Shown in pieces: positions 10,470-53,621 of a stretch of DNA of 64,000 nt. The position numbers and the translations under genes are program-made. The notes beneath the pieces were generated by a model that did no database searches, was not told the origin of the DNA, and saw only the letters and a list, made by a program, of their open reading frames with translations. The DNA lies in the NCBI GenBank assembly GCA_964016885.1, contig OZ024752.1, positions 22,444,001 to 22,508,000 of the forward strand, read 5' to 3'. Each line of letters opens with the position of its first letter. Position 1 is the stretch's first letter. Origin of the DNA: Eledone cirrhosa. Lineage: Eukaryota.

Positions 10470-13400
10470 TCATCATCATCATCATTTTACCTCCGCTTTT
10501 CCCTGTTTGCAAGGGTGGGACGGGTCTTATTCACCACAGCATCTCTCCACTCGTCACGGTCCCTCGTCATCTCCACCGTGAGCTTCAATGATCTGAGATC
10601 TGTTCTCACCACCTCCGCCCATGTTTTTCGTGGTCTACCTCTACCTCGTCTTCCTTCAACTGGCAATTCCTGGCACTTCTTCACCCATCGGTCATCCTCC
10701 ATGCGCATCACATGTCCATACCACCTCAGTCTCCTCTCCCGTACACTACATTCTATCCCTCTCAGACACAGTTTCTCTCTCAACACATTTATGCTGGGTC
10801 GTTCACGCACATTTACACTGCACATCCAACGGAGCATGCTTGCCTCATTTCTCTCCAGCCGTCGCATATCCTCTGCAGTTGCTGCCCATGTCTCACTACC
10901 ATGCAGCATCGCGCTCCTCACACGGGCATCATACAACCGGCCTTTCGTACGCAGGGAGAAACCCTTCTTCGTCAACAGAGGAAGCAGCTCCCTAAACTTC
11001 TTCCAACCCGTCCTTATTCTAGATACTATGGCCTCCGAACACCCTCCTCCCATGCTAATCTGATCTCCTAGGTACCGGAAGCTATCCACCACTTCTATAG
11101 CGCCCTCTTGCATTTGAAAAATGATGTGTCTATCAGTGCGACTTCTACTGTCTAATTTCCCTGTACATCTACTGCATACATATTTCTCCCTACCTGTTAG
11201 TTTGCCTGCTATCCCGCTACATCTCTTGTGTACCCAGGATCTGCATCGTGTGCATTTTATAGAATTTATGCCAGTTCCTTTTCTGCATATCGAACATGGC
11301 AATTTCCCTGATGGAATCAGAGTTTTGTCCTCTTTTCTACTCATCAACACTTTTGTCTTAGCTAGATAACACTCTCAGTCTTCTTGCTTCCAACTGCTGT
11401 TTCCATAGCCAGAATTTATTCTCTAGCTCCTCTACTGATTCTGCTATAAGAACCAGATCGTCAGCATAGAGAAGTTCCCATGGACAGCCAGTCTTAAACT
11501 CCTCTGTTATGGCTTGGAGGACTATAATGAACAAGAGCGGGCTGAGGACCGAACCCTGATGTACTCCTACTTGTATCTGGAATTCCTCACTAAACTCCAT
11601 TCCTACCCTGACTTTACTGAGAGTACCTCTGTACAAAGTTTGCACTGTCCTCACAAGCCATTCCTCAACACCTAGCTTCCTTAGGGACCACCAGATGACA
11701 GATCGGGGTACCCTATCAAAGGCCTTCTCTAGGTCAACAAAGGCTAAGTATAGTGGCTTATTCTTCTCTAAGAACCTCTCTTGCAATTGTCTCACCAAGA
11801 AAGGGGCATCTATTGTACTCTTCCCAGGCACAAAACCAAACTGCATCTCATCTAGTTTGACCCTTTCTCTAATTAGTTGTGCTAAAATCCTTTCTGCCAC
11901 TTTTATAACCTGATCTATCAGTTTTATACCCCTATAATTGCTCCTCTCCAAAGCATCTCCTTTACCTTTGTAGCAATTTATGAGAATACTGCTGCACCAG
12001 TCTTTGGGTATGACACCACCATATATAGCCTGATTGATGATGCGTGCAACCAGTTTAGTGCCTACGTCCCCTGATGCCTTCAGCATCTCAGCAACTATTC
12101 CCGATGGTCCGGCAGCCTTACCATTTTTCATTTCCCTAATCGCCTCTTGGACCCTATATTCGTCAATCTCAATAGCTGGTCCCTCTGTCGGATCTACCAA
12201 GGGTAATTTCTCTCTCTCCCATTCGTTCTCCACATTCATCAGTCTCTCATAATGACATTTCCAGGCCTCCTTTTTCTGATCATTCGTGACACTAAGTACA
12301 CCGGCATCATCCCGGACACATTTATCTCCAACAACATCCTGATTTGCATTGATACACTGCCTTGCAATGTGGAACACCGCACGCCTCTGATCTTCCCGTC
12401 GCAGAACATTGGCAAACCTCCTACTCTCTGCCTCCCTGCGTGCTAAGCACACCTAACGTCTAGCTTCTCTCTTAGTGGCTGTATATTCTTCCCTACTCCC
12501 ACCCTTTTTCCAAGCCTTCCATGCTAGTCTTTTGTCTCTAATAGCCTTATCTACTGTGCTGTTCCACCACCAGGTCACTTTCTGTCTGGTTGGAGCTCTG
12601 CTCCAGCCACAGGTTTCATCAGTAGCCTGCAGCAAGTTGTCACGTAAGAAATTCCAGTTATTATCTGTCATACGTCTCTAAATTGTCTTCTTTTTCGTCA
12701 TATACATCTTGAAGGGCTTTCCTAAATTTGTATTTTAGTGAAAGGTCTTTTAGCTTCCAGACCTTTCTTCTCCACACCTTCCTATATGTCTCATTCCATC
12801 TCTTGCTTACTGAGATATCACTAACAACTAACCTATGCTGTGGGGTACATTCTTCCCCAGGGTATGCCTTGGTATTAGACACTATCTTCCCGTTGCCTAA
12901 CTAGCAAGAAGTCAATCTGGCTTATGTGCTCACCAGATTTGTAGGTTATTAGGTGATTGGCAGGTTTCTGGAAGTTTGTGTTGCAAATAGTCAATGTACT
13001 CGCATCACAAAATTCAAGAAGTCTCACTCCTTCTTCATTTCTTGAACCGTAATCGAGCCCGCCATGTACCCCAGTGTAACCATCCTGGAGCTGTCCAACA
13101 TGACCATTGAAGTCTCCTGCTAGCATAACGATGTCTCCGTCCTCTGTCATTGCGGTTGTTTGCAAAAGTTGCTCATAAAAGCAGTCTTTCTCATCTTTGC
13201 CTAGGCCTGCTTGGGGAGCATAGACCGAGATGATTGTCAGTAGTCTCCTACCTACAACTAATCTAAGCTTAATTATTCGATTACTAACTCGAACTACCTC
13301 TATTGTCTTATTGATCCATTTCTCAGCCAGGAAAATGCCTACTCCTCCTAGCCCATCATCCTTACCTACCCAGAATAGCTTATAGCTAAGACGCTTGCCT

Positions 13401-13690
13401 ACGACTAGTCTCGCAGAGGCACCTCTCCATCTCACCTCTTGCACGCAGCACACATCCACCTGCCTTCTCTCCAGCATCTCCGCTATTTCAGCAGATCTAC
13501 CTCTGAGAGTGCCAACATTAAGTGTTGCAACTCTGAGATGCGACGTCTTCATATTTTGTTGTTCCTATTTGTTGCTGTGCTGATAAGCGTTTTGGCATTG
13601 ATATACTGGTTGGATGCCTTTCCTAACACCAGCGCCACTTTACAGCATGGACTGGGTGCTTTTATTTGTGCCACCAGCACTAGAGAGGAT
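10470..13690 (-). mobile_element. Near full-length RTE-clade LINE (APE + RT), with frameshifts
   Basis: APE motifs ATLNVGTL, CVQEVRW, GDFNGHVG, QIDF; RT motifs NYRGIKL, FVDLEKAFDRV, QGSVLSPLLF, LYADDL; PHD-like CSICRK...CRSWVHKRC insertion; (GAT)n tail at ~10470-10485. Confidence 0.92.
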
Positions 13691-16774: not shown

Positions 16775-17659
16775 ATTACAGAAACATTTGTTTAATATTC
16801 TGAATAATATGCACAAAACTGATGGAATTTTAGTACTCACATTGCAAGAGTATAACAGGAAAGTCACACTGCATGCTAGTGTCATGATCATTAACAATTC
16901 GAAAAACATTTCCGATATTTTCACTCTTCTTTATCTTGTATATATCAGTATCTCAGTAGATATGTATGAAATACATTGGTTTAGGTATACGTATGTATGT
17001 TACAGACAGACAATTTTAGGATACACTTAGAACATCCAGTAGAAAGGAAACTTAGATATTATCTATCTTTACAAATAGATTATCTTACAATACAATACAT
17101 AATTGTTTCTACTTTAGGCACAAGGCCAGCAAGGCAAAGTCAACAATACATAATGATGCGATTTAGGATTCTTTTTCTAGTATTTACATGTGATAAGATC
17201 AGGGCTATTTTCCGGAAAATGCAACTTTGGCATCAATTCTAAATACCGATGTTTATATCACAATCAGCTTGAAGTTGTATCAACTGAAGCCAATAATTAT
17301 ATTGTATCCTGTGCTGTTATATATATATATTTGCGTACATATGTAATATATATATATATATATATACGTCTCCGAGGGTTTCAGAACGAAGACTACACAA
17401 TGAAATTATTAACAAATCTAAACATTATGCTAGCTTTTGCGAAAATTCACCAAACTGTGTGACTTAGACAAGTTTTACTGAACGGGTGGAATTTCAAATG
17501 ATTTTGACGTTTGTTTGAGTTTTTGTTACGTTGGAAACACTACGTTGTTACCATGGTGACACAAGTTGTTCGGTAAAAACATAGATATGTCTATATATAA
17601 TACCAGATAGAAAAATGCGTACAGCAAAAAAGACACACAGTTTGGTGAATTTTCGCAGG

Positions 17660-18115
17660 GAGGTGAGCAAAGTGAGGGGGGGGGGGGAATGAGCCAAGTG
17701 AGAAAGGTGCACAAAGAGGGGGAGATGAGCCAAGTGAGGGAGGTGCACAAGGAGAGGAAGGTGAGCAAAGTGAGAAATGTGCACAAAGAGGGGGGGATGA
17801 GCCAAGTGAGAAAGGTGCACAAAGAGGGGGAGATGAGCCAAGTGAGAAAGGTGCACAAAGAGGGGGAGATGAGCCAAGTGAGGAAGGCAAGCAAAGAGGG
17901 GGAGATGAGCCAAGTGAGAAAGGTGCACAAAGAGGGGGAGATGAGCCAAGTGAGGAAGGCAAGCAAAGAGGGGGAGATGAGCCAAGTGAGGGAGGTGCAC
18001 AAAGAGGGGGGGGAGCCAAGTGAGAAATGTCCACAAAGAGGGGTAGATGAGCCAACTGATGGAGGTGAGCAAAGTGAGACAGGTGCACAAAAAGAGGGGG
18101 GTGAGCAAAGTGACC
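17660..18115 (+). repeat. 36-bp purine-rich coding tandem repeat, about 11-12 copies, at the N-terminus of the Rep ORF
   Basis: Unit ATGAGCCAAGTGAGAAAGGTGCACAAAGAGGGGGAG (MSQVRKVHKEGE, or DEPSEKGAQRGG in the alternative frame). Confidence 0.92.
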
Positions 18116-21100
18116 AGGAAGATTTTGATGGCAGAAAATGTACAGAACTTCTGACTTTGGCTAGATTGTGCAAATTTGGTCCCCCATCAAATTGCCCAGA
18201 TCCCACTGCACGTCTAAAGCTAGCTAAACGAATGCACAAGGCCATACATGAACTTTCACCTGATTTTACTGTGTCCCAAATTCGGAAAAAAATGGAAATC
18301 TTTGAGCAGTGTAAAGGATTCCATAGGGACAACATCTATTGCATAGGACAGTCTGACTGCACAAATGGACTTGAACTGATTCGAAGTATGGCTCCTCACT
18401 CTCCTCGCATCCGTACACTTCTGAGATGTGTGTACAAAGTGAGATCAGTCTGTGTCTGGCTAGACTCCTATGACATTTCAATCTTGGAAGGAAATTGGTC
18501 AATGTTTGATGATCTAGTAAATCCCCAAAACATGTCCAACAATCTGCTAAGCCGTTTGAATGAGATAGTGGAAAATGAAAATGAGAGCTTGCATTCAGAA
18601 TCCTCAATCATGGCCAATTTTGCATCCATTATCAAACATTTTAATAAAGAGATTCAAAAAATGAAAATCAACTCCTGTGACATTTGCAAACAACGAGAAT
18701 TAGATGCTAAACTCAAAGTCTGGGAGGATTGGAGCCCTTTGACAAATCCCTATCTCCTGGAAACCATTCAACAAAACTACTCTCTACCATGTACGATTTG
18801 CTCTACATGTAGAAATAGTCTTGTCAAAAAGTCGATACCATCATTGGCTTCAATCAATGGCCTAGAAGTGGTCAAAATTCCAAATGTGTTGTCAAAGTTG
18901 AACATGTATGAGCAGATTTTGATCCAAATGGCCAAATGCTTCTTCAATGTCATTAAATTGTCACCCTATCGTTTCAAAGGTGCACCATCAGATCTAGTAG
19001 CTGCTATTAAAGGAATAGCAACTCACATGCCACTACCAGTAGAAAAAACAATCAATCATGTAATGAAAAAACTTCCATCGAATCAAAATGAGGCATTTGA
19101 AATAATTGTTGATAGTCTTCCAACTAAAAAGGGCACAATTTGGCGATCGCTAGTGAATATGCAAAATTTCTTTGATGCCTTGGAGTGGCTGAAAAACAAC
19201 AATGACATTTTGATAGACAGAACCACAAATTTAGAGGACATTGTTACATGCACTGGTGAAAATGTTTCCATCAATTTTCCACACATTCTCACACAAACTG
19301 GTGCTGAAACAGTCTATGAACACCATACTGTACAGCAAATCAAGCCTGCACTCCCAAATCAAAAGGACCTTGAACTGTTTCGCATGAAACGAGTTGAAGG
19401 TACTCTTCTTCCGGACAATGATCCAAACCTGGATCTGATGTGCTTCCCCCACTTATTCCCTAAAGGAAAATTTGGAATGATGCACATGAACAGACCCCAT
19501 GGTAGAGTAAAGCCATACATGTTCATCAGAAACAGACTCAGACATGAGGACCCCCGGTTTCGTAGAGACATTCAGTACATTCTCTACAATTTGGACAAGG
19601 CTGACAAAAGAGCACTAGATTCTGGCATTTATGCCGTAATGAAATCACTCAAAAGTCCAAAATTGACACTTGCTCAATTTTATAAAAGATTGGAAGCCAA
19701 TGATGAACAATTGGAAAGTGGTTTGTCAATGATGATGGCGAATGTTCGTGGAACAAAGCCATTTTGGGAACGCAAGTGCTCCGACTTGAATACCATAGAT
19801 GAGAAATTCGGTCCTGCCCATTTTTTTATCATTCTTTCATGTGCTGAATACTTTTGGCCAGGCTTGAGGGAATTTTTGGAAAAACTCAAAGACATTGCAA
19901 ATGTTGAAACAAGGCCGATAAGGAATCTCTGTGCAAATGATGTTGTGGCTGTCAGTGAGTACTTTCACCATCGTTTTAGTGCTGTTTTTCATGATGTAAT
20001 TTTAAATATAAAAGGCCCATTTGGGGAAATTATTCATTACTTTTGGCGACTCGAGTATCAACAACGTGGTGCCCCTCACATTCACCTTAAAGCCTGGGTT
20101 CGGGACAGTGTAATTTTTGACAAAGATCCTAAAGAAAAAATCAAGCAATTTATTGAACGCTGCATTACTTGCCGGCTACCATCCCCTGTGGCCAGCACAA
20201 ACTTGGCAAATCTCGTTAGACGGTTCCTAGTCCATACTTGTGGCAAAGCATGCTGGAGAATAGTGGGGAGAGGGAAAAATTTGCGTAAAAAATGTCGTTT
20301 TGGTTTTGCACGTGCAGTGGGGCCATTTCGATTTTTCTCAGTTTCTGAAAGTATCAAATCACGAAAAAATGGTAATGGGACAAACAAAACTACCAATTGG
20401 AAAGAAAAGAATCAGAAAAGTACATAAATGACTACAATCCATGTTTACTTCTAGCCTGGCAAGCAAATATAGATGTGCAATACATTGGTGAGAATAGTAT
20501 GATTTTGAATAGATATGTCAGCTGCTATCAGACTAAGGCCAAAAAAAATGAGGCTGAGGGAGTGTGGGCGAATCTGGATCATTCCAAAACAAAATATGGG
20601 AAATACAAAAGTGCTGGACTGCAATTGCTTGGGAAAAGGGATACAGGAGGGTATGAAGCTGCTGACAAACTTTTGGGGCATCATTTTTACGGGTCATCAG
20701 ATCATGTTATTTGGGTAGGTGCAGATATTCCCAGTAGGCGCGGCCGCAGATTGAAATCTCAAAATGATCTCGATGAACTGAGTGAAGACTCAATGGACTT
20801 GTTCTACGAGAACATGGTGGAAACTTTTTACAAAAAACCGGCCAAAATTCCTGGAAGATTCCTCCTTATATGAAGTTGCCAGCAAATATGAGAGGACACA
20901 AAAAAAAACCTGTTCACAAAGATGTGGCTACAAAAATGAAATTGCTCAATGACAAGGGGTATTTTCATAGTGTAAAAGAGCGGGTAGTTAAAGCACCAAA
21001 TATACAGCTCAAAGATGACACAAAAGAACGTTATTACCACAATCTTCTAATGCTGTTCAAACCCTGGCGCGATGAGGACAAAGATTTGTTGGGGGGCTGC

Positions 21101-23594
21101 AAAACATTTGAAGAGTCCTTTCATCTGTGTGCAAACAATTTGCCAGATATGGTGAATTTTCAAAATGTGAGGAAAAAAATCACTGATGCAGTTGAGATGG
21201 GGAAGAGGTTGGAGAAGGAGGGTGAAAAGGAGGGAGAGCTCGGAGAAGGACGGAGAGAAGGGGGGGAGAAGGAGGCAAGAGATAAGGCTGGTATTGATGT
21301 TCCCCAAATTCGAGATGTAGATGAAACTGCTCTACAGACAAAAGAAACACAGCTTAATACAGATCAAAGATCCATATACAATCTAATTGTATCAGCAATT
21401 GAAAAACAGGAATTGCATTGGAATTCGGAAAAACCACTACCAAGGTGCAGATGTGATGATTGCCCACAATTTCTCAAATTTGTCTCTGGCGTAGGAGGTA
21501 CAGGAAAAAGTTTTCTCATTGATATAATTTCTGACAAAGTTACTCAAATTTGTTGCAAGAGAAATGGGGCCCCAGTAGTCATTTGTGCACCAACTGGTAT
21601 GGCTGCTTTCCAAATCAAGGGGACCACTTTGCACAGGCTCTTGAAACTCCCAGTCCAACATGGAAAGTCACCATCATATAGGGAATTAGAAAGTGATGAA
21701 CTCAAAATTTTGCGATCCACTCTAGAGGGTGTCCGTCTGATAATTATCGATGAAATAAGTATGGTCAGTCATCTGATGTTGGCATTTATCCATAGGCGTC
21801 TAGATGAGATTTTTGGGGACCAGAGTCACATGACCAGCCCTTTTGGAAAAATAAATATTCTGGTTTTTGGCGATCTACTTCAACTTCCACCAGTAAATGA
21901 AAAAACAGTCTTTTCCAGTATTTCTGCATATGATGCTAAAAGGACTGGTCTGGGAATAAGTGGGCAGTCACTGTGGACATTTTTCGACTATGATGAGCTC
22001 ACTATAAACATGCGGCAAAAAAATGACAGTGAAAACTATTCTGAAATGTTGGGTCGAATAAGAATAGGATCACCTACAGACATGGACATCAAGACTAATG
22101 CTGAGACGAAACATTAATTTGGTGAAGGGGCTATGTAATGGTGTCATGGGAACAGTGCAAAGCATGGTCAATGGAAAAGATGGGAAAATGGGACAAATCA
22201 TTGTGGAATTTGATCACATGATAGGCAATGACATTTCAATAGAAAAGGTGACTGCAGACTATGAAATCTCTCCTGGTGTGTATGTGACACGAAAACAGTT
22301 CCCCCTATGCCTTGCCTATGCCATCACCATCCATAAATCACAGGGAATAAGTGTTGATGGGGTCATTGCCGATCTTGGTCCTCTGGTGTTCGCAGATGGA
22401 ATGGCCTATGTTGCACTTTCACGAGCTAGGAAACTCTGCAATGTCTATTTGATAGATTTTGACCCACGAACCCTGATCATGTGTGACAAATCTGCTTGGG
22501 AAGAGTACAACAAATTGCGTTCTACAACAAAATTGCCTCCACTTGGGCCATGTAGAAATAAACCACCATGCATGGCTTCTGAATCTTGCATGCCAAAAAA
22601 ACGATCAAGGCGAATGTTGAATGTGGACAACCCTTCTGAATATGCTGCTCCTACCAAAAAACCTAAATTAGCTACAATTTCCATGCTCACTCCCATGATT
22701 AGACTACAAAATAAGGAAAATGCCTGTTTTGCCAATTCCACACTTCAAGCTATTGCCCAATTGCCCAAACTTTGGGAAACTTTGTTGTCTACCCAATTAC
22801 TCAGTCCAGTTGTTCAGGAAATAGCAAATATTGTCACACCAGGGGATCGGGATGTTTCAATTCTGCGAAGATTAATTGGGGGGAGATTTAATGATGGTGC
22901 TCAGCAATGTGCCCATGATTTTTGGAAAAATATCTACCCACATTTTCCACCAAATGCACAGCAAATATTCCAATTTCAAGTGAATGAAACACTAAGATGC
23001 ACTAAAAGTCATGAAAAGGAATGCCCACGTTTGAATGATCAAATTTGTACTTGCACACATAGACCTGGATGTGGACTCGAAACTCACAAAACACCAGAAA
23101 TTCAAACAGACTTGACATTGCATCCTATTCAAGGCCCTCAACAGTTTCGTACTTTACTTGTATCAAATGACACCATAATAAAACAATGTGACACCTGCAC
23201 CACCAATACAGAGCACAAAACAACCATCAGGAGAGATTTCCCACCCACAATGCACTACCTTGTAGTATCAATCAACCGATTCCTCATAACCAGTGGTCAA
23301 GAAACTCAAATACATTGTGATTTATTGAATTTCAGTTCAAAACGCCAGCAGTTTTTTGGTACCAATTTCCAACTTCAATCAGCAATTGTTCACACATTAG
23401 GTTCCACATCAGGAGGTCATTACACTTGTTTAATTCACAAAGATGGTGACAAATGGGATGAAATTAGTGACACGTGCATAACCAAAAGGCACCCAAAATT
23501 TCCACCTAAATTGCCAAATATTGTTTTACTTTTTAAAAAAAAAACTATAGGTCCAATATCACTCCAGAATGCTCTGTCCTACACATCCATGTGA
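17689..23594 (+). pseudogene. Helitron-like HUH Rep + PIF1 helicase + USP (peptidase C19) polyprotein, split by frameshifts (~20400, ~20850) and a deletion/frameshift (~22095)
   Basis: Rep: GPAHFFIILSCAE, RLEYQQRGAPHIHLKAW (HUH), YVSCYQTK. PIF1: GVGGTGKS, IIDEISMV, GDLLQLPPV, MRQ, QFPLCLAYAITIHKSQG, YVALSR. USP: LQNKENACFANSTLQ, QQCAHDF, SAIVH..STSGGHY, WDEISD. Confidence 0.92.
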
Positions 23595-24354
23595 ACTCTA
23601 TTAGACATTAAAATAATATAGAGTATAAAAATCTGTACTACTATATGAAAAATTTGTTTCATTTGTCAAGCAACTGTGTCAGAGGACAGTGCCGAAGTAT
23701 GCAGTAGGTCTGTCCAATGTAACTGTTGTCTGCCAAAATGTAACATTTTATATTATAAACATTTATATGTATGTCTAATGGAGTTACACATCTTTACTGG
23801 CAATTCTTCACTATTAAATTTCTTGGTCACAACTTGGACTTGGTGGGTGGATTTTTAAAATAAATATGAACAGTCAAATCAGGTGAAACAAAACAAGCAA
23901 CAAGCAAGCCACATCATAAGCAAACAAATAATATACATGCGAAAAATTGTAAAAAATGCACACAAAATTTGTAATTAATCCCCCGAAAAAATTCATGTGA
24001 AAAAAATCCCCCAAAAAGTTTGCATGTGAAAATTGACAAAAATGCTGTGTGTGAAAAAATCAAAAAAACCTCAAAAAAACTTGCATGTGAAAATTGACAT
24101 TTGCTTTGTATTGTGTAAAATTTGTCATTTATTTTATTGTCATGTCTAATTAAAATGTAATTTTCAACTAAATGCAAATGGTGTAATTGCACCATTTAGA
24201 TTCAGTTGTTAATGCTCACCTACTAAATATTATCTAATATATTTCAAATTGTATTTTTAACTAAATTCATTTATCATAGTCTAATATTTTAAAAATAGGT
24301 GAGTGCTCCACGATGATGACCCATGTCCCCGCCATGTGGAGTGGATACTTAGGA

Positions 24355-24414
24355 GCCATCCAGATATCATGTGACCATTTTTGGTTCGCGGTGTCCACAT
24401 GATATCTGGATGGC
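24355..24414. repeat. Perfect 19-bp inverted repeat (hairpin) with a 22-nt loop
   Basis: GCCATCCAGATATCATGTG (24355-24373) and CACATGATATCTGGATGGC (24396-24414). Confidence 0.9.
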
Positions 24415-24635
24415 CCTTTATACTAATTAGTCATTTATCTGCATAAAAATTATACCAGATCATTCTGATTATTGGCTTGAAATCTTTTACAAAATTAGTA
24501 TGAGCAACTAAGAGGTCATCAATAGAAATAGAATTACTTTTTGAAGTTTTCATGCACAGCATTTTTGGGGATTTTAAATAAAAGTTAATATCATAATTCT
24601 TATTTTGTATACCCACATTGCAGATACAGAGAAAC

Positions 24636-26023
24636 ATGACAATCCTATATAAAGGTCGTAGACAACAGTATCAGTTTTTATCCAATATGAGCAAATTAAA
24701 CAGTCCACTGAATTTATTGGAATGTTCATTCATCACAGTTGAACATGCTTATAAGTACATCAAGACCCTATTTTATGGGAGAAATGACCAACTCTGCCAC
24801 ATTTTGGCAGAAAAAGACCCATTTAAGTAAACATATCCCATACATATTTGATTAAAGTTTACAATGCTATTTTTTGATAGATTGTCAACTTTCTGCAAAG
24901 AGAGAGATTTCAAATGGGAATCAATCCAGTTTGATCTCATGGTGGTACTGTTGTCAATGAAATTCGAAAATGATCCTCTACTAGCATCAAAACTTTGTGA
25001 CACGGGGACTGTATGTAGATGTGACTAGGGTTGCAAACGGTTTTTTTACCATTAAAAAACCAGTAAAAAACGGTTAAAAAACCGTTTTTTACCAGACTCG
25101 AAAAGTTTCCAAAAAAAGTTACAAACGGTTTTTTTACCATTAAAAACCAGTAAAAAACGGTAAAAAAAAACGTTTTTTGAGGGAAAAAACCATTTGAATC
25201 TAGCTCATTTCTTGAATATTTGTAGCAACAATTGGTCGAGGACACCCCTAATCCAATTTGGCGGCGAGGATTTAATGGGAATGGTACAAATCTCCATGGC
25301 CGTTGTTTAATGGTCGTCCGTGCACTTTTGAATAAAAATCACCCACAATTCAAGTATATTGTGGGTGATTCAATAATTAGAAATGTGGCGAAATCGAATG
25401 ACCAGAAAGTATAAAAATATTAATTCAAATGTATTTACTTATCATACCAACAAAAATACTTAGATATTTTGTATAAGGGGGCCCGTCAGGGCCAGGTAAT
25501 GTTAATCGCCAACATTGTTATCTGTTGTCCTTTTGTGAAAGTATTGGTGGTTCATGTCGGCTCTAATGATCTGAATCCTCGTCGCACCGTTGGCACTACA
25601 AAGCTGTGCAAAGTAATACAATAATTTTTGCCCAAGTATTTTTTATTAATCATTTATTTGTAAATTAAGGACAAAGTGCCCATTCGAGGCACAAAACCGG
25701 GAAAACAGGGGAAGAGTCTCTTTGCAAGGCTACAGAAAATAGCGGAAAAGCACCACTGTACACCCATTTTCTACAGTGGTGTCATTCCACGTCCACAAAG
25801 TGTAATTGAAAATAGAAATGACTTGGGCAAGAGAAATTCTCGTTTGGAAAAGTTTAATTACTGCATGAAAGAAATGATTCAAAAATTGAACTTGCCCAAT
25901 CTTCACAACATTGAAAATTGGTCAAAATTTGACAAATCTGACTTCAAACCAGATATGAATCATTTGAACAATGTTGGAAATCTTAAATTGACAGAAATTT
26001 TTGCCAATGTTTTTGCCACCTGA
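24636..26023 (+). CDS. Spliced NADAR (YbiA-like) + SGNH/GDSL hydrolase fusion, ~335 aa, one -1 frameshift in a G run
   Basis: Exons 24636-24826, 24881-25010, 25226-25408, 25464-25612 and 25670-26023, all GT-AG and phase-consistent. NADAR: FLSN..TVEHAY..K..W....M..KF..DP.L...L.DTG..LVE....W..G...G.N.HG..LM.VR. SGNH: IVGDSIIR, RGA, VHVGSND, DMNHLN. AATAAA at 26061. Confidence 0.85.
25026..25192. mobile_element. Probable MITE/TIR-end fragment inserted in intron 2 of the NADAR-SGNH gene
   Basis: Starts TAGGGTTGCAAAC; duplicated CAAACGGTTTTTTTACCATTAAAAACCAGTAAAAAACGGT; this intron is 215 bp while the other three are 54-57 bp. Confidence 0.45.
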
Positions 26024-26203
26024 TCCTTGTTCTATGGCTGACTGACTAATTTTGTGACTTAATAAAATGTCATCATACTAGTAATGCACAATTGTCATTT
26101 TAAAATTTAAATTTTATTAAATAGTTGTTGCTTGCATTGCCTTAAAATAGTAACAAGAATGTACACATACTTTTTAAAAATACATCATTATCAGTCAAAT
26201 CAG

Positions 26204-26563
26204 TCAAATGTCACTAAAAGCCAGGTGGTCGATAACAACTTCTATAAGATTAGTTACATGCTCACACATTGGATCACCTCTCATCAATGGCATTGGGTGT
26301 CTGAGATAATCGTGGATATAACTGATGAAGTCACAAATGAAGTGATGGTCTTCCAGTGTGAACAACTCCCTATATCCATTGATATATGTGATGGCTTCCG
26401 ATTCATAGGTGCATTTTATGAGGAATTCCATGCATCCGATTTTCAGTGATTCAATGGGCATTTTATCAGAGATGATAAGGTATTTGACCACGTTTTGCTT
26501 TGTAAGTAAATTGGAGAGAATCACTGCAGTCAAAGTCATTTCTTTGCATGGGATTTTGTCCAT
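26204..26563 (-). CDS. 119-aa ORF resembling a BACK/SPOP C-terminal helical domain
   Basis: L..NLLTKQNVVKYLIISDK..IESLKIGCMEFL....EAI...NGYRELF fits the L-T-x-E-N-V..L.LAD....LK..C..FI pattern; preceded by a TTTTTAG acceptor-like site. Confidence 0.45.
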   Translation of the reverse strand: MDKIPCKEMTLTAVILSNLLTKQNVVKYLIISDKMPIESLKIGCMEFLIKCTYESEAITYINGYRELFTLEDHHFICDFISYIHDYLRHPMPLMRGDPMCEHVTNLIEVVIDHLAFSDI

Positions 26564-26833
26564 TCTAAAAAGTTAAAATGATAAAGTATTACTACTATAT
26601 AACTTACATCTATTGTAACACCGTTGAAATGCACAAGTTTCACCAATTCACTATTATGCACTAATCATCTCAAATGCATTCATGATTTACTAGCTTTGTC
26701 ATTAAGCCAGTTGCCTCAACTAGATTGCAATTATACTCAAAAGAACTTTAAAATGTCAATCACTTGTCAGTAATTCACTATGATCATTTAATTATTAGAT
26801 AGTTGTTGCTTGCATTGCCTTAAAAAATAGTAG

Positions 26834-27928
26834 ACCAGATAGAAAAATGCGTACAACAAAAAAAAGTAATATTGTTGGAATATAAACCTTTAAAAATACA
26901 GGACAAGAAACTAAGATAAAACTTTAGAAGAATAGGACAAGAAACAAAGATAAAACTTTAAAAGAATAGGACAAGAAACTAAGATAAAACTTTAAAGAAT
27001 TGGACAAGAAATAAAAAAATTTACAATAATATTAGTGGCAAAATTTTTTTATTCGTTTCCTGTGCTATGCCCCAGAATCTTCTTGATTAGTGCATACTAA
27101 TTGTCATGCTCTCATTGTGCGTTGCCCCTGAGCGGTTGGTTCTGGTTGGGGTTGGTTGGCTGATCAGTTCTGCTCCGGCAGAATTACCATTGCAAGAAGA
27201 ATTGGCCGATGCAGCTGCAGGTCTCCTCCAAGAATGCACTTCTGGTCCCGCAAGACTAGACGAAGATGGAGAAGACGACCGGGACAAGATGTCGACTCTG
27301 ACCACCGACTACGGCACCTCCCTCAACCACCGGTCCTCCCTCCCTCTGTCCCGTCATCCCTCCAGTCCTCCTGCTCCCCCTTCCTGTACCAGAAAGCTGT
27401 GGCACGCATTCATCTGGACTGTCGGACTTGAACTTAAGGACAAGATGCAAGGAGAAGATGGGCGGGTTGGTCAAGATCAAGGATGAGCGGGACGACAAGA
27501 CCGTCCGCTGCTGCTCAAGATCTGTGCTCATGGGCCCATGGGTCCATTCACATTATGCATGACACATGAGGCGTGTCGCCGAATGATGAAATAGGGGTAT
27601 GGTTATGGCCCAATTGGTGTTCAAACCAGGATCAAATGATCCCCCCGGTCTGACGACGACCTCTGAATGTGGAACCCAGAGCCAATGAATGTTGAACTCG
27701 ATTTTTTACCAATAAAAATTTTGCCACTAATATTATTGTAACATTTTTTATTTCTTGTCCAATTCTTTAAAGTTTTATCTTAGTTTCTTGTCCTATTCTT
27801 TTAAAGTTTTATCTTAGTTTCTTGTCCTATTCTTTTAAAGTTTTATTTTAGTTTCTTGTCCTGTATTTTTAAAGGTTTATATTCCAACAATATTACTTTT
27901 TTTTGCTGTACGCATTTTTCTATCTGGT
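26834..27928. mobile_element. Foldback-like unit with ~215-bp inverted arms containing ~34-bp subterminal tandem repeats
   Basis: Arms ~26834-27051 and ~27711-27928 are near-perfect reverse complements; unit GGACAAGAAACTAAGATAAAACTTTAAAAGAATA. Confidence 0.85.
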
Positions 27929-28249
27929 ATATATATATATATATATAATTATATATTCGTGTACAGATACTTTTGCATGCACAAAATATAAACAAACGTA
28001 TTTATTTCACGCAGCTCGATAAGGATAAATATATATCAAATATATAAATATATAAATATATATCAAATATATACGAACCCTAGTGCGGACTCTTGTGTCA
28101 TCGACACAGTAGGCGGAATGGGAAAGTGAGGATAACGTAGGGTGTACATTGGGTTTAGAGGTGCTTACTGGCTGTAGGTTTGTATGCAAGGGAAGGCGGG
28201 TCTTCTGTACAATTGCATAATTGCTGGGTAAAAAAGTGAGCAAGGTCAG

Positions 28250-33000: not shown

Positions 33001-33378
33001 AAAATATATATCCTAAACGGACGGTAGTCCATTTAGTAATATTGTTGTGGTCGTGTTTTCGTTGGCAATCGTCTGTTTACGACAGTACAGCGCGGCTCTA
33101 CTTTATTTAACTGAGATAAAACTTATATGAGCATGAACAGTAGATCATTACACATCTTTTGGCTTAAAAATCTAGAAATTTGGTCCAGCGGGAAAAAGTT
33201 TATAATCAAAGTTTGTTGATAAATCTTGTGTTCAAGTGAGAGAGTAGTAAGCGTGACGCTAGGGGAGGTAATTACGAGGTAATTACAAGGGGAGGTAATC
33301 TAATATATTTCAAATTGTATTTTTAACTAAATTCATTTATCGTAGTCTAATATTTTTAAAATAGGTGAGTGCTCAATA

Positions 33379-49193: not shown

Positions 49194-49723
49194 TTGGCGA
49201 CCCTGACGATAAAGAATGAAAACGCAGCCTATTGGAGTCCGAAATTCTTTTTAACGGCAATGTGGAATGGCTTAACATTTGGAATGTCCGAATCACTTAG
49301 CGTAAGTCCATAAAATTCATTATATTCCATTTGTTATAGCACGCATACAGACAAACACAAAAAATACAACACACAACAAAAAAAAAAAAAAAAAAAGGAT
49401 TTCTCTGGAAATAGAATTTTGCTTCCAACATTCTGTGGAAATTACAAATGGAGATATTTCGTTTTCCCGCGTTCAGCCTGTCTTCTCCAATCCCAGCCAT
49501 CTGATTGGCTGCATCGTGCCTCATGACGGCTTCATCACGGACACATTTTTAAATCAGCCATCTTGGATTTTCTTACCATTAATTTTCATAGAAAATGATT
49601 TTTTTTTATTATTAAAATTTTCTTTGGAATATTTTTTTTTAAAGAAAAAAATTACCAGCAATCAGCAGCAACACATGGCTAACTATTGACCAACACCAAA
49701 AAAATCATCAAATACGTGGCACC

Positions 49724-50509
49724 ATGAGTCAACATCAATTACCGTCCTTCGCAGGCGACATCAAGTTGTGGTTTGCGCAGCTGGAATGTTTCTTCGAATT
49801 GACGAAGACAAAGGAACAGCATAAGCTGAAGGTCCTGATCAATAGCCTACCTGTTTCCTTGGCATTCTCGGCGAGGGACGTTGTGACGGATTTAGACGCC
49901 GACGTTACCTACGGCTCATTAAAAAAAGAAATCCTTCGCCGAAATACCAAGTCGGTAGAGAGCCGTTTTCGGGAGTTGTTGGACGATGCTCAAATGGGTG
50001 ACAGGAAGCCGAGCTCCTATTTGCGACATTTGCGGGAGTTGAGCGACTCTCAGGGGATTGACACCCCCTTCATAAAACAACTTTTTTTCTCACGCCTACC
50101 ACCAAGTGCGCAAAGAATATTGGTCAATAGTTTAAAGAAGGATTCAATAGAGCAACTTGCCGCGTCCGCGGATAGGATACTTGAGGTGGACTCGAACAGC
50201 AATCAGCATAATGCTTATGTGGCTTCAGCTTGCGTCCCTCCACGCAGTTCTTCTATGGCCGACGGCAAACTGTTGGAGTTGATTGAAGCTCTCACCAAAA
50301 AGGTAGAGGATTTGACGGTACATCACAGAGAGCCTTCTCAACGTTTGAGGTATCGTTCGCCGCCGTCCTCTATTCATCGCCAGCACTACAACGCAGGCAA
50401 CAATAATTCTTCGTTGTGTTGGTACCATGCTAACTTCGGCAGTAGGGCGCAACGTTGTCGCACGCCCTGTGATTATAAGAGATCGGGAAACGCAAAGCAG
50501 AGCCACTAG
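49724..50509 (+). CDS. gag: Gypsy gag
   Basis: LWFAQLECFF, MGDRKPS..LR.LR, CWYHANFG..AQRCRTPC (CHCC knuckle); G GGA AAC slippery site at 50485-50491. Confidence 0.9.
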   Translation: MSQHQLPSFAGDIKLWFAQLECFFELTKTKEQHKLKVLINSLPVSLAFSARDVVTDLDADVTYGSLKKEILRRNTKSVESRFRELLDDAQMGDRKPSSYLRHLRELSDSQGIDTPFIKQLFFSRLPPSAQRILVNSLKKDSIEQLAASADRILEVDSNSNQHNAYVASACVPPRSSSMADGKLLELIEALTKKVEDLTVHHREPSQRLRYRSPPSSIHRQHYNAGNNNSSLCWYHANFGSRAQRCRTPCDYKRSGNAKQSH

Positions 50510-53500
50510 GAGCGGCTAGTGAACTCTGGGAAAACCGACCGAACCGCCATCTTTTCGTATACGACCTGCGGTCAAAAAAATTTTTCCTTGTCGATACTGG
50601 CCAGTCAGTTATCTCAAAAAAAGCCCAGCCGAAGCAGATATAAATCTACGAGCAGTCAACCACACGGCCATTCGAACGTATGGGCAAATTTCGCTTCCTC
50701 TTCGGTTAAAAAATTTGCGGCGTGATTTGAGGTGGAAGTTTACTGTCGCCGACTTGCCATACGCCATTTTGGGAGCGGATTTTCTCCACCATTTTTCCTT
50801 GTTGGTGGACATTCGCAGACAACGCCTTGTTGATACTGAAACAGGCCTTTCTTTCGAGGGTTCAGAGCCGGACGTCGCCACCGTCAGCCCTTCCTTTTTC
50901 TTGGCTGAAGTGGGCAACCAGTATCAAAGCCTGCTACATTCATTCCCTCAGTTGACGCAGGGAAAGTTAAGAATAACTAGCCCGGATCATGCGATTGAAC
51001 ACTTCATATCCACTACAGGTCCACCTGTTTTCTCACGTCCTCGAAGATTGTCTACAGAGAAGATGAAAGCTGCACGTCTTGAATTCGACCACATGCTGGA
51101 ATTGGGAATAATTCGGCGCTCCACAAGTCCTTGGGCATCGCCTCTGCATATGGTACCTAGATCTTCTGGGGATTGGAGACCGACGGGTGACTACCGACGC
51201 TTAAACGCGATTACTGTGCCTGACCGTTATCCAATCCCGCATTTGCAGGATTTTGCGTCGTCATTGCAGGGTTGCAGAATCTTTTCTAAGCTTGATTTGA
51301 TCCGCGCTTATAACCAAATTCCGGTTAACGAGGAGGATATCCCAAAGACTGCTATTGCCACTCCTTTCGGATCGTTCGAGTTCCTCACTATGCCTTTCGG
51401 CCTTAGAAACGCTGCAAGTACCTTCCAACGATTTATGGATGATATTACTCGGGGCCTGGATTTTGTGTACACTTATATCGACGACGTGTTGATTGCTAGT
51501 TCTTCCCCTCAGCAGCATTCAAAGCATCTGGATCTCGTGTTTCGTCGTTCACAGAGATATAATGTTCGAATTAATGCTTCCAAGTGTGTTTTCGGCTCGA
51601 CTTCACTAACATTTTTAGGCCATCTGATTGACGCCGATGGTATTCGACCTCTTCCTGAGAAGGTTAAGGCAGTATCGGATTTGCCTCCGCCAAGTTCACT
51701 GCGTCAATTGCGTCAATTCCTGGGCCTTGTAAATTTTTATAGGCGATTCGTACCTGGTTGTTCCAAATTGCTGTTCTCGTTGACAGAGATTTTTAAGGGT
51801 TGCCGGCGTAAGAATATGGACATTTCCTTAAATGAAACGCAGCTTGATGATTTTAAAAAAGTGAAAAAGGCGTTAGCGAACGCGTCTTTGCTCGCCCACC
51901 CAGTACCCAACGCCGAGCTATCGCTCTGTGTTGATGCTTCGGATAGCGCCGTGGGCGCAGTCTTACAGCAGAAGGGTGATGGGGTACAGCAACCACTCGA
52001 GTTCTTTTCGAGGAAGTTAAAGCCTTCAGAAACTCGCTATAGCACCTTTGGAATGGAGCTATTAGCAATTTATTTATCAGTGAAACATTTTGCTCATGTA
52101 CTTGAAGGTAGAACATTCACCATTTTCACTGATCATAAACCCTTGACGTTTGCTCTTCGAACTAAGGCAGACAAATACTCGCCCAGAGAAACGAGACATC
52201 TGGACTTCATCTCACAGTTCACGAACGACATTCAAAATATTCCGGGTTCTTTGAATACAGCGGCCGATGCGCTGTCTCGCCTGCCGATCGCATCGATTTC
52301 GTCTTCCGAGGAGATAGATTTACATCGAATGGCAGCTGCCCAACCCACTCTCGAATCGTTGGATGTTACATCGCCAGAGTTTGTACATTGCAAACTGAAA
52401 TACATTCCGATCTCAACTGCTGACGGACAGATACTGTGTGATGTTTCGTTGGACTCACCACGACCTCTAGTCCCAGTGGAACATCGACGAACTGCGTTTC
52501 TCGCTTTACATGGCATTTCTCACCCAGGAGTATCAGCCTCAGTAAAACTCATAACAGCCAGATTTTTCTGGCCTGGTATGAGACGTGACATTGCTGCTTG
52601 GTGTCGTTCCTGTGTCGCTTGCCAACAAGCGAAAGTTCATAGACATGTTAAGGCTCCTCTCGGAACCTTCACCTGCCCCGATGCAAGATTTCGTCACATT
52701 CATGTGGACATCGTCGGCCCGTGGCCGGTTAGTCGTGGTTTTTCGTATCTTTTGACGATTGTTGACCGTTTTTCGCGTTGGCCTGAAGCCGTCCCTATAA
52801 CAGATATCACCGCCGAAACCACAGCCCGTACCCTCGTATCTTCGTGGATCGCTCGTTTCGGTGTACCAACCACCATAACAACGGATCGTGGTCGTCAATT
52901 CGAGTCTAACCTCTTCCGAGAGCTAACTCAAATCCTGGGGGCTACTCGAATAAGAACCACGGCTTACCACCCAGCCTCAAACGGAATGGTGGAAAGATTC
53001 CACAGGCAGCTCAAAGCCTCCTTAAGGGCTTCCATGGACTCTTCACGTTGGAGCGAGTACCTACCCATTGTATTGTTGGGTATTCGGTCGACGGTAAAGG
53101 TGGACCTTGGGTTCTCCTCTGCCGAATTAGTTTATGGTACGCCTCTGGCGTTACCGGGGAAAATGCTGGCCCCTTTTGACCTGACTTCGCAGGACCCCGC
53201 TTCCTACGTGTCCCGGCTTCACTCTTATTTCAAGGATCTACCACCGATGGGCACTAGGAAGCAGACTGTAAAAAATGCCGTCCCAAGGGATATTGCCTTG
53301 TGGACCCATGTGTTCGTTAGAGACGACGCCGTGAAACCCCCTCTTCAACGGCCGTACTCTGGACCCTATCGTGTGCTTGCTCGCACAGACAAACATTTCA
53401 CACTGGACATTCAGGGTTCCAGGGAAACGGTTTCCGTTGATCGTCTCAAACGAGCAAACCTGGACAATGACACAATGACACTTGAAACTCAAATGCCCCC

Positions 53501-53621
53501 CTCTTTTTCTTTGCCACACAGGCCTATTTCTTCCCCTCCCCCACCATCAACACACAGAACTACGACCCGTTCTGGGCGAAGGGTGCATTGGCCCCGTAAG
53601 CTATGCAGTAATATAAACTGA
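50486..53621 (+). CDS. pol: Gypsy pol (damaged protease; intact RT-RNaseH-integrase ORF 50715-53621)
   Basis: FLVDTG in the -1 frame followed by a deletion and stop; [51 protein letters not shown]. Confidence 0.92.

Follow-up and report, generated by a model that had tools for sequence, protein, structure and literature searches.

The stretch of DNA analysed here, referred to as the window, comprises 64,000 nucleotides of the Eledone cirrhosa genome (GCA_964016885.1, contig OZ024752.1, positions 22,444,001 to 22,508,000 of the forward strand) and holds, at 17602..27927 on the plus strand, a 5′-truncated and broken copy of an HLE2-type rolling-circle transposon, which belongs to a group of copies we call subfamily A and in which homology to sister copies begins at 17657. 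Within this copy, an open reading frame (ORF) of 508 amino acids from stop to stop (22068-23594, plus strand) runs in one frame from helicase motifs V and VI into a ubiquitin-specific protease (USP, peptidase C19) domain. The first-pass annotation had proposed that such a domain is fused in frame to the C-terminus of the RepHel (Rep-helicase) transposase, and this is borne out by Pfam, by structure, by 30 of the 30 best genomic matches and by relatives from outside this genome. The HMMER comparison that it had suggested placed UvrD_C_2 at residues 82-127 of the ORF and UCH (PF00443) at residues 212-476, the latter with an E-value of 7.9e-13 and 49 bits against a cut-off of 23.9. The C-terminal part of the helicase (22098..22517, plus strand; Pfam PF13538 and PF21530), with motif V at 22314-22358 and motif VI at 22407-22427, shares its frame with the USP domain and is followed by a linker (22593..22667, plus strand) with two basic clusters, PKKRSRR and PTKKPK. 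These clusters, which we take to resemble a nuclear localisation signal, are also found in the linkers of subfamilies B and C despite a linker identity of only 25%. The USP domain itself covers 22698..23545 on the plus strand, as delimited by Pfam UCH, the structural model and residue alignment. All the motifs that had been listed for it were located in frame with PIF1 motifs V and VI, namely the Cys box LQNKENACFANSTLQ (22704-22748), QQCAHDF (22902-22922), the His box SAIVHTLGSTSGGHY (23379-23423) and WDEISD (23454-23471), each on the plus strand.

At the level of single residues, the domain has an oxyanion Asn at 22710, the catalytic Cys at 22725, a His at 23391, the catalytic His at 23418 with a Tyr directly after it, Ser at the third catalytic position (23466), Asp at the fourth (23469) and zinc-site cysteines at 22998, 23070, 23187 and 23196. 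The earlier claim that the catalytic Cys, His and Asp are retained is thus right for the Cys and the His, while the Asp is present but occupies the fourth, adjacent position. We counted these residues in the 30 best-scoring genomic matches, which span four subfamilies and, having been picked by score, are biased toward good copies. The catalytic Cys, the His, the Tyr after it and the fourth-position Asp are found in 30/30, while at the third position 19 have Ser and 11 have Asn, the subfamily with intact copies being among the latter. Ser at the third position also occurs in the active enzymes USP16, USP30 and USP45, and several USPs rely on the fourth residue, according to PMC10867860. In complete sequences from outside relatives, 40 of 46 keep the Cys, the His and an Asp or Asn.

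An AlphaFold2 model of 22686-23546, built from a 52-row alignment, reached a predicted local distance difference test (pLDDT) of 91.5 and a predicted template modelling score of 0.88. Foldseek matched this model over its full length to solved USPs (E 5.6e-18, TM 0.72-0.76, 16-20% identity), and structural alignment gave a Z of 25.4 and a root-mean-square deviation of 2.2 Å over 260 residues, with USP2, USP14, USP12, USP21 and others tied. Compared with the solved enzymes, the predicted model has the thumb-palm-fingers fold and, like the cellular USP2, USP12/46, USP14, USP21 and USP30, a four-Cys zinc site and Cys, His and Asp. It differs from them in its identity of ~20%, its compact length of ~280 amino acids, a Cys in the QQD box, an insertion in the fingers and its fusion to a transposase. 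By sequence, the best matches among solved USPs are USP12/46 (E 4e-26), with USP2, USP8 and USP21 almost equal. USPL1 was absent from the structural matches listed, a listing that does not exclude it. A single-sequence match in the PDB to the designed repeat protein Tako8 was rejected as a sum of weak repeats. Word-index protein searches with the USP region at E 0.001 returned nothing, whether among longer proteins (482 candidates) or among those of similar length (534 candidates), which reflects a limit of sensitivity, because a full HMMER search did recover relatives. The insertion in the fingers (~20 Cys/His-rich residues, window 23010-23060, modelled at a pLDDT of 57-64) is found in the subfamilies of this genome and in 2 of 52 outside rows, and is possibly a second zinc site.

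When the domain was modelled together with the ubiquitin of its host, the predicted complex scored 0.86, whereas none of three controls exceeded 0.00; at least 95% of the contacts recurred between runs, and the partner had a pLDDT of 91. The ubiquitin tail (residues 70-76) contacts domain residues 12-15, 72-78 and 236-246 at the catalytic Cys, so that ubiquitin is predicted to occupy the usual USP site. Of microbial pairs, 51 of 78 solved ones and 2 of 108 mismatched ones passed the mark applied to this score; of eukaryotic pairs, 71 of 105 solved ones and 2 of 126 unrelated ones did. Since USP-ubiquitin complexes have already been solved, the prediction measures likeness rather than binding, and it also passes close cousins of a true partner, so that NEDD8 may fit as well. 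This bears on the alternative that the domain acts as a protease on a modifier other than ubiquitin, such as SUMO or NEDD8, or as a cutter of the transposase polyprotein, in the manner of USPL1 and some viral enzymes. The same alternative draws on departures from the usual residues in the QQD box (QQC) and in the H-x-G motif (H-x-L), on a Ulp1 domain at the corresponding place in one relative, and on a feature search whose nearest clusters were compact giant-virus USPs, some with Peptidase_C98 (score 0.95, taken as a lead only). We nonetheless regard it as improbable. According to PMC8983731, the marks of the SUMO protease USPL1 are Tyr for His, Phe for Tyr, Met for Gln, Phe for Glu and the loss of the blocking loops. 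None of these USPL1-specific swaps is present in our domain, which keeps all the ubiquitin-type markers described there (the His before the catalytic His, the Tyr after it, the Gln and an acidic residue, Asp or Glu, at the position contacting Arg72) and has residues for both blocking loops in its sequence.

The copy in the window is dead. It is about 2.3 kb shorter than its sister copies at the 5′ side, where the truncated end is capped by 30 bp that repeat the 3′ end of the element in inverted orientation (17602..17631, plus strand), a feature found in this copy only; a further 28-bp inverted repeat lies on the same side (17438-17465 and 17630-17657). At the 3′ end, flanks diverge directly past the CTGG and the T that follows it (27924-27928) in all 7 of the stretches from subfamilies A and B in which this end is present, out of 11 stretches searched. 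The RepHel gene is in pieces. Frame 1 (17611..20427, plus strand) contains N-terminal repeats, DUF6570, Helitron_like_N and Rep (PF20209, E 1.5e-12; PF14214, E 4.3e-23; PF23343, E 1.5e-6), with the HUH motif at 20047-20088, and is parted by a frameshift near 20390 from frame 2 (20376..20873, plus strand), which carries the Rep tyrosine motif YVSCYQTK at 20514-20537. Frame 3 (20786..22117, plus strand) holds PIF1 helicase motifs I-III (PF05970, E 4.1e-26), with Walker A at 21488-21511. It is followed by the junction of a 314-bp deletion (22092..22096, plus strand), unique to this copy, which removed ~105 helicase codons and shifted the frame. The deleted segment is present in sister copies aligned on both sides, four of the six pairwise alignments give its size as 314 bp, and contigs of the family assembled from public sequencing runs continue with extra letters on either side of the junction. 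We rejected an intron at 22092-22096, since sisters carry the missing segment inside an open frame of 772 amino acids. Relative to six sister copies, single-base indels lie near 20390, 20832 and 20900, all frameshifts, and near 23535, where a one-base gain lengthens the USP ORF by ~17 residues. These lesions all sit in homopolymers, such that mutation and assembly error are both possible, and the contigs of three sequencing runs aligned to the window represent the family-majority sequence and do not discriminate between the two. No RNA data set was among the sequencing runs listed as containing the sequence. The deletion and the 5′ truncation are independent of this doubt and make the copy non-autonomous regardless. 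The USP ORF is cut off in frame from Rep and most of the helicase, and the fusion protein cannot be produced from this copy.

Some other copies in the same 3.0-Gb genome, where we found at least 67 matches by DNA and at least 118 by protein (both lower bounds), retain what the window copy has lost. The 30 best matches fall into four subfamilies, the genome holding at least that many: A, to which the window copy belongs and whose copies are 94-99% alike, B, whose domain is 85-86% identical in amino acids, and C and D, at 45-49%. All 30 carry the USP domain, which is retained in other copies of the family. One subfamily A copy has a 772-amino-acid open frame from PIF1 into USP, and in one subfamily B copy stretches of 1,904 and 507 codons share a frame that is interrupted by one stop. 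Stop-free frames covering the whole USP domain were found in 7 of the 118 protein matches. They measure 2,230 or 2,245 amino acids, all belong to subfamily C (G000:C2:253893900-253913899, with loci L104 and L105, and loci L101, L107, L110, L113, L115 and L116), and are 99.17-99.99% identical to each other, two of them differing by 1 base in 6,693. A Pfam scan of one intact 2,230-amino-acid frame gave DUF6570 (E 2.3e-17), Helitron_like_N, Rep, PIF1, Pif1 2B, UvrD_C_2 and UCH (39.6 bits). Neither an Exo_endo_phos endonuclease nor OTU was found in this protein, in agreement with the first-pass annotation, which had seen no apurinic/apyrimidinic (AP) endonuclease or OTU protease; the USP fills the C-terminus. 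Among five intact copies checked, the flanks all differ; four share matching ends ~12.9 kb apart, and the fifth has the 3′ end in common and a different 5′ part. Near-identical frames within differing flanks point to very recent transposition, and by this sequence comparison subfamily C is probably a still-active HLE2 family. The nearest named relative is an uncharacterised Octopus bimaculoides protein.

Two further features of these copies are set down here. A group of seven copies (L049, L050; also L013-L019) shares a deletion that starts at window position 22836 and removes most of the USP, such that a USP-less derivative was amplified, presumably in trans. Separately, the word GCVELNPGP follows a hydrophobic N-terminus, ~130 residues from the start of the RepHel frame, in the L040:1597 region and in five more subfamily A/B copies; it is missing from the window copy and absent in subfamily C. 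It seems to resemble a 2A/StopGo word, with Cys where Asp is usual, and the papers listed by a literature search on it were general 2A papers.

To assess selection on the domain, we compared nonsynonymous to synonymous substitution ratios (dN/dS) between changes that are shared by lineages and changes private to dead copies. For differences common to subfamilies A and B, dN/dS of the USP domain was 0.42 (bootstrap 0.24-0.70, 278 codons), as against 1.0-1.2 for the private changes in two domains, the value set against the USP being 1.20. The C-terminal part of the helicase gave 0.13, and pairwise comparisons gave 0.08 for PIF1 and 0.13 for Rep. Subfamilies B and C are 46% identical in the USP domain, where synonymous sites are saturated, compared with only 25% for the linker, while Rep and helicase reach 61-69%. 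By these substitution patterns, the USP domain is held by selection in the lineages that transpose, less tightly than the Rep/helicase core. The idea that it is a captured fragment of a host USP carried as a passenger, or only a ubiquitin-binding scaffold, would be in accordance with the known capture of genes by Helitrons (described in PMC11417382), with the subfamily-specific NADAR cargo of the window copy and with the loss of the catalytic Cys in some outside relatives. We consider it very unlikely: the domain has no introns and is in frame in all intact copies, its dN/dS is below 1, and its catalytic and zinc cysteines are held among relatives only 14-26% identical, while its own identity to solved USPs is ~20%. 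As a separate observation, the synonymous distance between A and B declines from 5′ to 3′ (window 19582-23543 against L040), from 0.58 in Rep through 0.49 in PIF1, 0.33 at the helicase end and 0.27 in the linker to 0.18 in the USP, hinting at exchange of 3′ parts between subfamilies.

The pairing extends well beyond this genome. At E 0.001 the full HMMER search yielded 14,382 proteins, and we examined the best 150 of them. Among these, 83 relatives had at least 150 amino acids past the helicase, and this C-terminal slot held a USP in 67, an OTU in 10 (7 above the Pfam cut-off), Ulp1 in 1 and nothing recognised in 5. The USP profile used for the slot was built and iterated on these same matches. 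Independently, Pfam scans of 15 long proteins showed 11 that combine Helitron_like_N, PIF1 and UCH in a single chain. In a quick helicase tree (69 sequences, ~190 amino acids), two OTU groups and the Ulp1 element are nested among USP-bearing elements; the joining node has a support of 0.19, and we therefore make no claim about the order of protease swaps. Three outside proteins (P0120, P0124 and P0139) have two USP domains each, which either stand in tandem downstream of the helicase or occupy opposite ends of the transposase.

The architecture is not new, as the first-pass annotation had allowed it might be: HELIANO (Li et al. 2024, PMC11417382) already catalogues UCH/PF00443 for HLE2 subgroups c and d. 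In that paper, UCH is one of 20 captured domains, found nearly only in HLE2 and enriched in those two subgroups (Table S11), and its elements are like ours in having an HLE2 transposase, DUF6570 and UCH and no AP endonuclease. The text there has four domains sharing the RepHel ORF and places the others, UCH included, in different ORFs, whereas here UCH is in the RepHel frame, although the figures of that paper may show in-frame cases; also unlike here, its passages on UCH are without analysis of catalytic residues, structure or selection. The HLE2 assignment of our family rests on Rep (HUH, Tyr) and PIF1 in one ORF, seen in the intact 2,230-amino-acid frame and broken in the window copy, on DUF6570, a marker of HLE2 according to PMC11417382 (E 1.5e-12 in the window, 2.3e-17 in the intact frame), and on short terminal inverted repeats (13 bp in A/B, ~10 bp by eye in C). 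The C-terminal AP endonuclease of Helentrons (HLE2 subgroup b) was not found in the intact protein. Judged by description, UCH and the missing endonuclease fit subgroups c and d as the PMC11417382 text presents them. A functional precedent is the VTD/OTU of Helentrons (Erven et al. 2022), which is likewise a deubiquitinase inside the RepHel ORF; ours differs in its USP class, its C-terminal position and the lack of an AP endonuclease. As PMC9741609 describes, the VTD domains are active, cut K48 and K63 chains, and have been suggested to keep the proteasome from degrading the proteins of transposition. Searches of open papers, with Repbase and Dfam outside their scope, that paired Helitron with deubiquitinase terms turned up no work on the function or the structure of a Helitron USP. 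The RepHel-USP pairing is thus of a catalogued kind, and is real, old and conserved. What we add is the in-frame fusion, the three protease classes in one slot, and intact young copies that make function testable.

As to what the domain does, we think it somewhat probable that the C-terminal USP is a deubiquitinase that strips ubiquitin off the transposase itself, most usefully when the latter is bound to DNA. The Rep tyrosine would stay covalently on single-stranded DNA while a strand of 13 kb is displaced by the helicase, quality control in the host would mark this adduct with ubiquitin for the proteasome, and a USP tethered in cis would remove the tag and so extend the life of the transposase, acting as an accessory outside the strand-transfer chemistry. 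In accordance with these steps, HUH transposases and nucleases hold DNA via a covalent 5′-phosphotyrosine (PMC5876387), and protein crosslinks at single-stranded gaps are ubiquitylated and degraded (PMC11300803). The two roles proposed in the first-pass annotation, shielding of the Rep-DNA adduct and action on chromatin ubiquitin, are both compatible with the evidence. The second of these corresponds to an active deubiquitinase that the transposase would bring to the donor or target site, where its substrate would be the chromatin or the replication machinery of the host (for instance ubiquitin on H2A/H2B or PCNA), an alternative to which we assign a rather low, though appreciable, likelihood. 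The evidence of fold, residues and selection applies to it as well, tethering to a DNA-binding enzyme would deliver the USP to chromatin, and USP12/46 are the best sequence matches, with USP2, 8 and 21 nearly tied. However, so many USPs are tied structurally that the scores point to no orthology with a histone deubiquitinase, and the presence of unrelated OTU and Ulp1 domains in the slot would fit a general role against degradation better than action on one histone mark.

Several observations weigh against removal of ubiquitin from the transposase. Selection constrains the domain less (0.42) than it does Rep and helicase (0.08-0.13). The catalytic Cys is lost in 6 of 46 complete outside rows in which the domain is still kept, and the outside sample came from a USP-containing query and is hence enriched for USPs. 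Cys replaces the Asp of the QQD box in 30/30 genomic matches, where the outside rows have Asp in 33 and Cys in 8 of 52, and Leu replaces the Gly of H-x-G in 23/30, where 35 of 46 outside rows have Gly; due to these two departures, affinity or specificity for ubiquitin may be unusual. The helicase match of Helraiser stops at residue 1461 of 1496, which leaves no room for a USP, and Helraiser transposes (PMC5876387), such that the domain is not needed by every Helitron and would be accessory. Lastly, the evidence fits the transposase, chromatin or signalling proteins equally as substrate. A broader proposal, which we hold only tentatively and below the deubiquitinase reading itself, is that the C-terminus is a swappable shield slot (USP, OTU or Ulp1) guarding the covalent DNA adduct against crosslink repair driven by host ubiquitin or SUMO, and that the intact 99.9%-identical subfamily is a naturally active HLE2 element, with an unusual 216-bp fold-back at its 3′ end, in which such a role is directly open to assay. 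Helitron-like elements have repeatedly taken up ubiquitin- and SUMO-type proteases, and no paper found in the searches shows what these protect. Should the USP keep covalently bound transposase out of reach of crosslink repair by the proteasome, the transposon would have a counter-defence against DNA repair, one that could help to improve tools for gene delivery based on Helitrons. A natural full-length RepHel-USP for assays, with no need for reconstruction, is offered by the seven intact relatives of very young age, a practical gain over the dead copy in the window.

The ends of the element combine traits of different groups. In subfamilies A, B and C the 5′ end is a TC after an A, with a hairpin directly following (stem of 10 bp in A/B, 24 bp in C), the 3′ end is CTRG before a T, and no target duplication was seen. 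A 13-bp subterminal inverted repeat joins the two ends in A/B, and one of ~10 bp, judged by eye, does so in C. The canonical HLE2 insertion between T and T with a 3′ stem-loop was not found; the element instead begins with TC after A, ends with CTRG before T and has its short hairpin at the 5′ end. HLE2-reverse (FoHeli3/4/5) and proto-Helentron elements, as the relevant section of PMC11417382 describes them, are alike in having a 5′ stem-loop outside a short subterminal repeat, a CTAG-type 3′ end and DUF6570; here, in contrast, the 5′ TC and the A^T target are as in HLE1, and a fold-back of 216-218 bp goes unmentioned in that section. This fold-back is a 3′ terminal inverted repeat (26831..27931) with 218-bp arms at 26831-27048 and 27714-27931 that are 97% complementary, the outer arm covering the CTGG at 27924-27927. 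Subfamily C has 216-bp arms of mostly different sequence at the same place (L105:2015-2977). In A and C the last 216-218 bp are thus duplicated in inverted orientation 0.5-0.7 kb upstream, and B has both terminal words. Since the arms resemble each other far more than they do across subfamilies, they appear to have been copied from one another.

Between the USP ORF and this fold-back lies a cargo gene in pieces (24636..26023, plus strand), with a NADAR domain followed by an SGNH-hydrolase-like part. NADAR was recognised by three collinear Pfam matches (profile positions 4-67, 82-116 and 118-162; E 0.0018, 0.014 and 0.13), all below the cut-off, and the SGNH motifs, which had no Pfam match, we presume from inspection by eye. 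The NADAR-like exons seem, by eye, to be interrupted by an insertion near 25030-25195. This cargo was found in subfamily A only and is absent from B and C. A link between NADAR and USP, both of which could undo tags of crosslink repair, was considered and dropped, as B and C, the intact one included, are without the cargo. Elsewhere in the window, 33009-33260 contains a second 5′ end of the same family, with hairpin and subterminal repeat, 252 bp that are 96% identical to a sister copy, and is probably a short derivative of the family. The other mobile elements seen are a Ty3/gypsy-like gag-pol region with reverse transcriptase, RNase H and integrase by Pfam (49643-53621, plus strand) and, judged by eye, a broken long interspersed nuclear element with endonuclease- and reverse transcriptase-like frames (11358-13564, minus strand).

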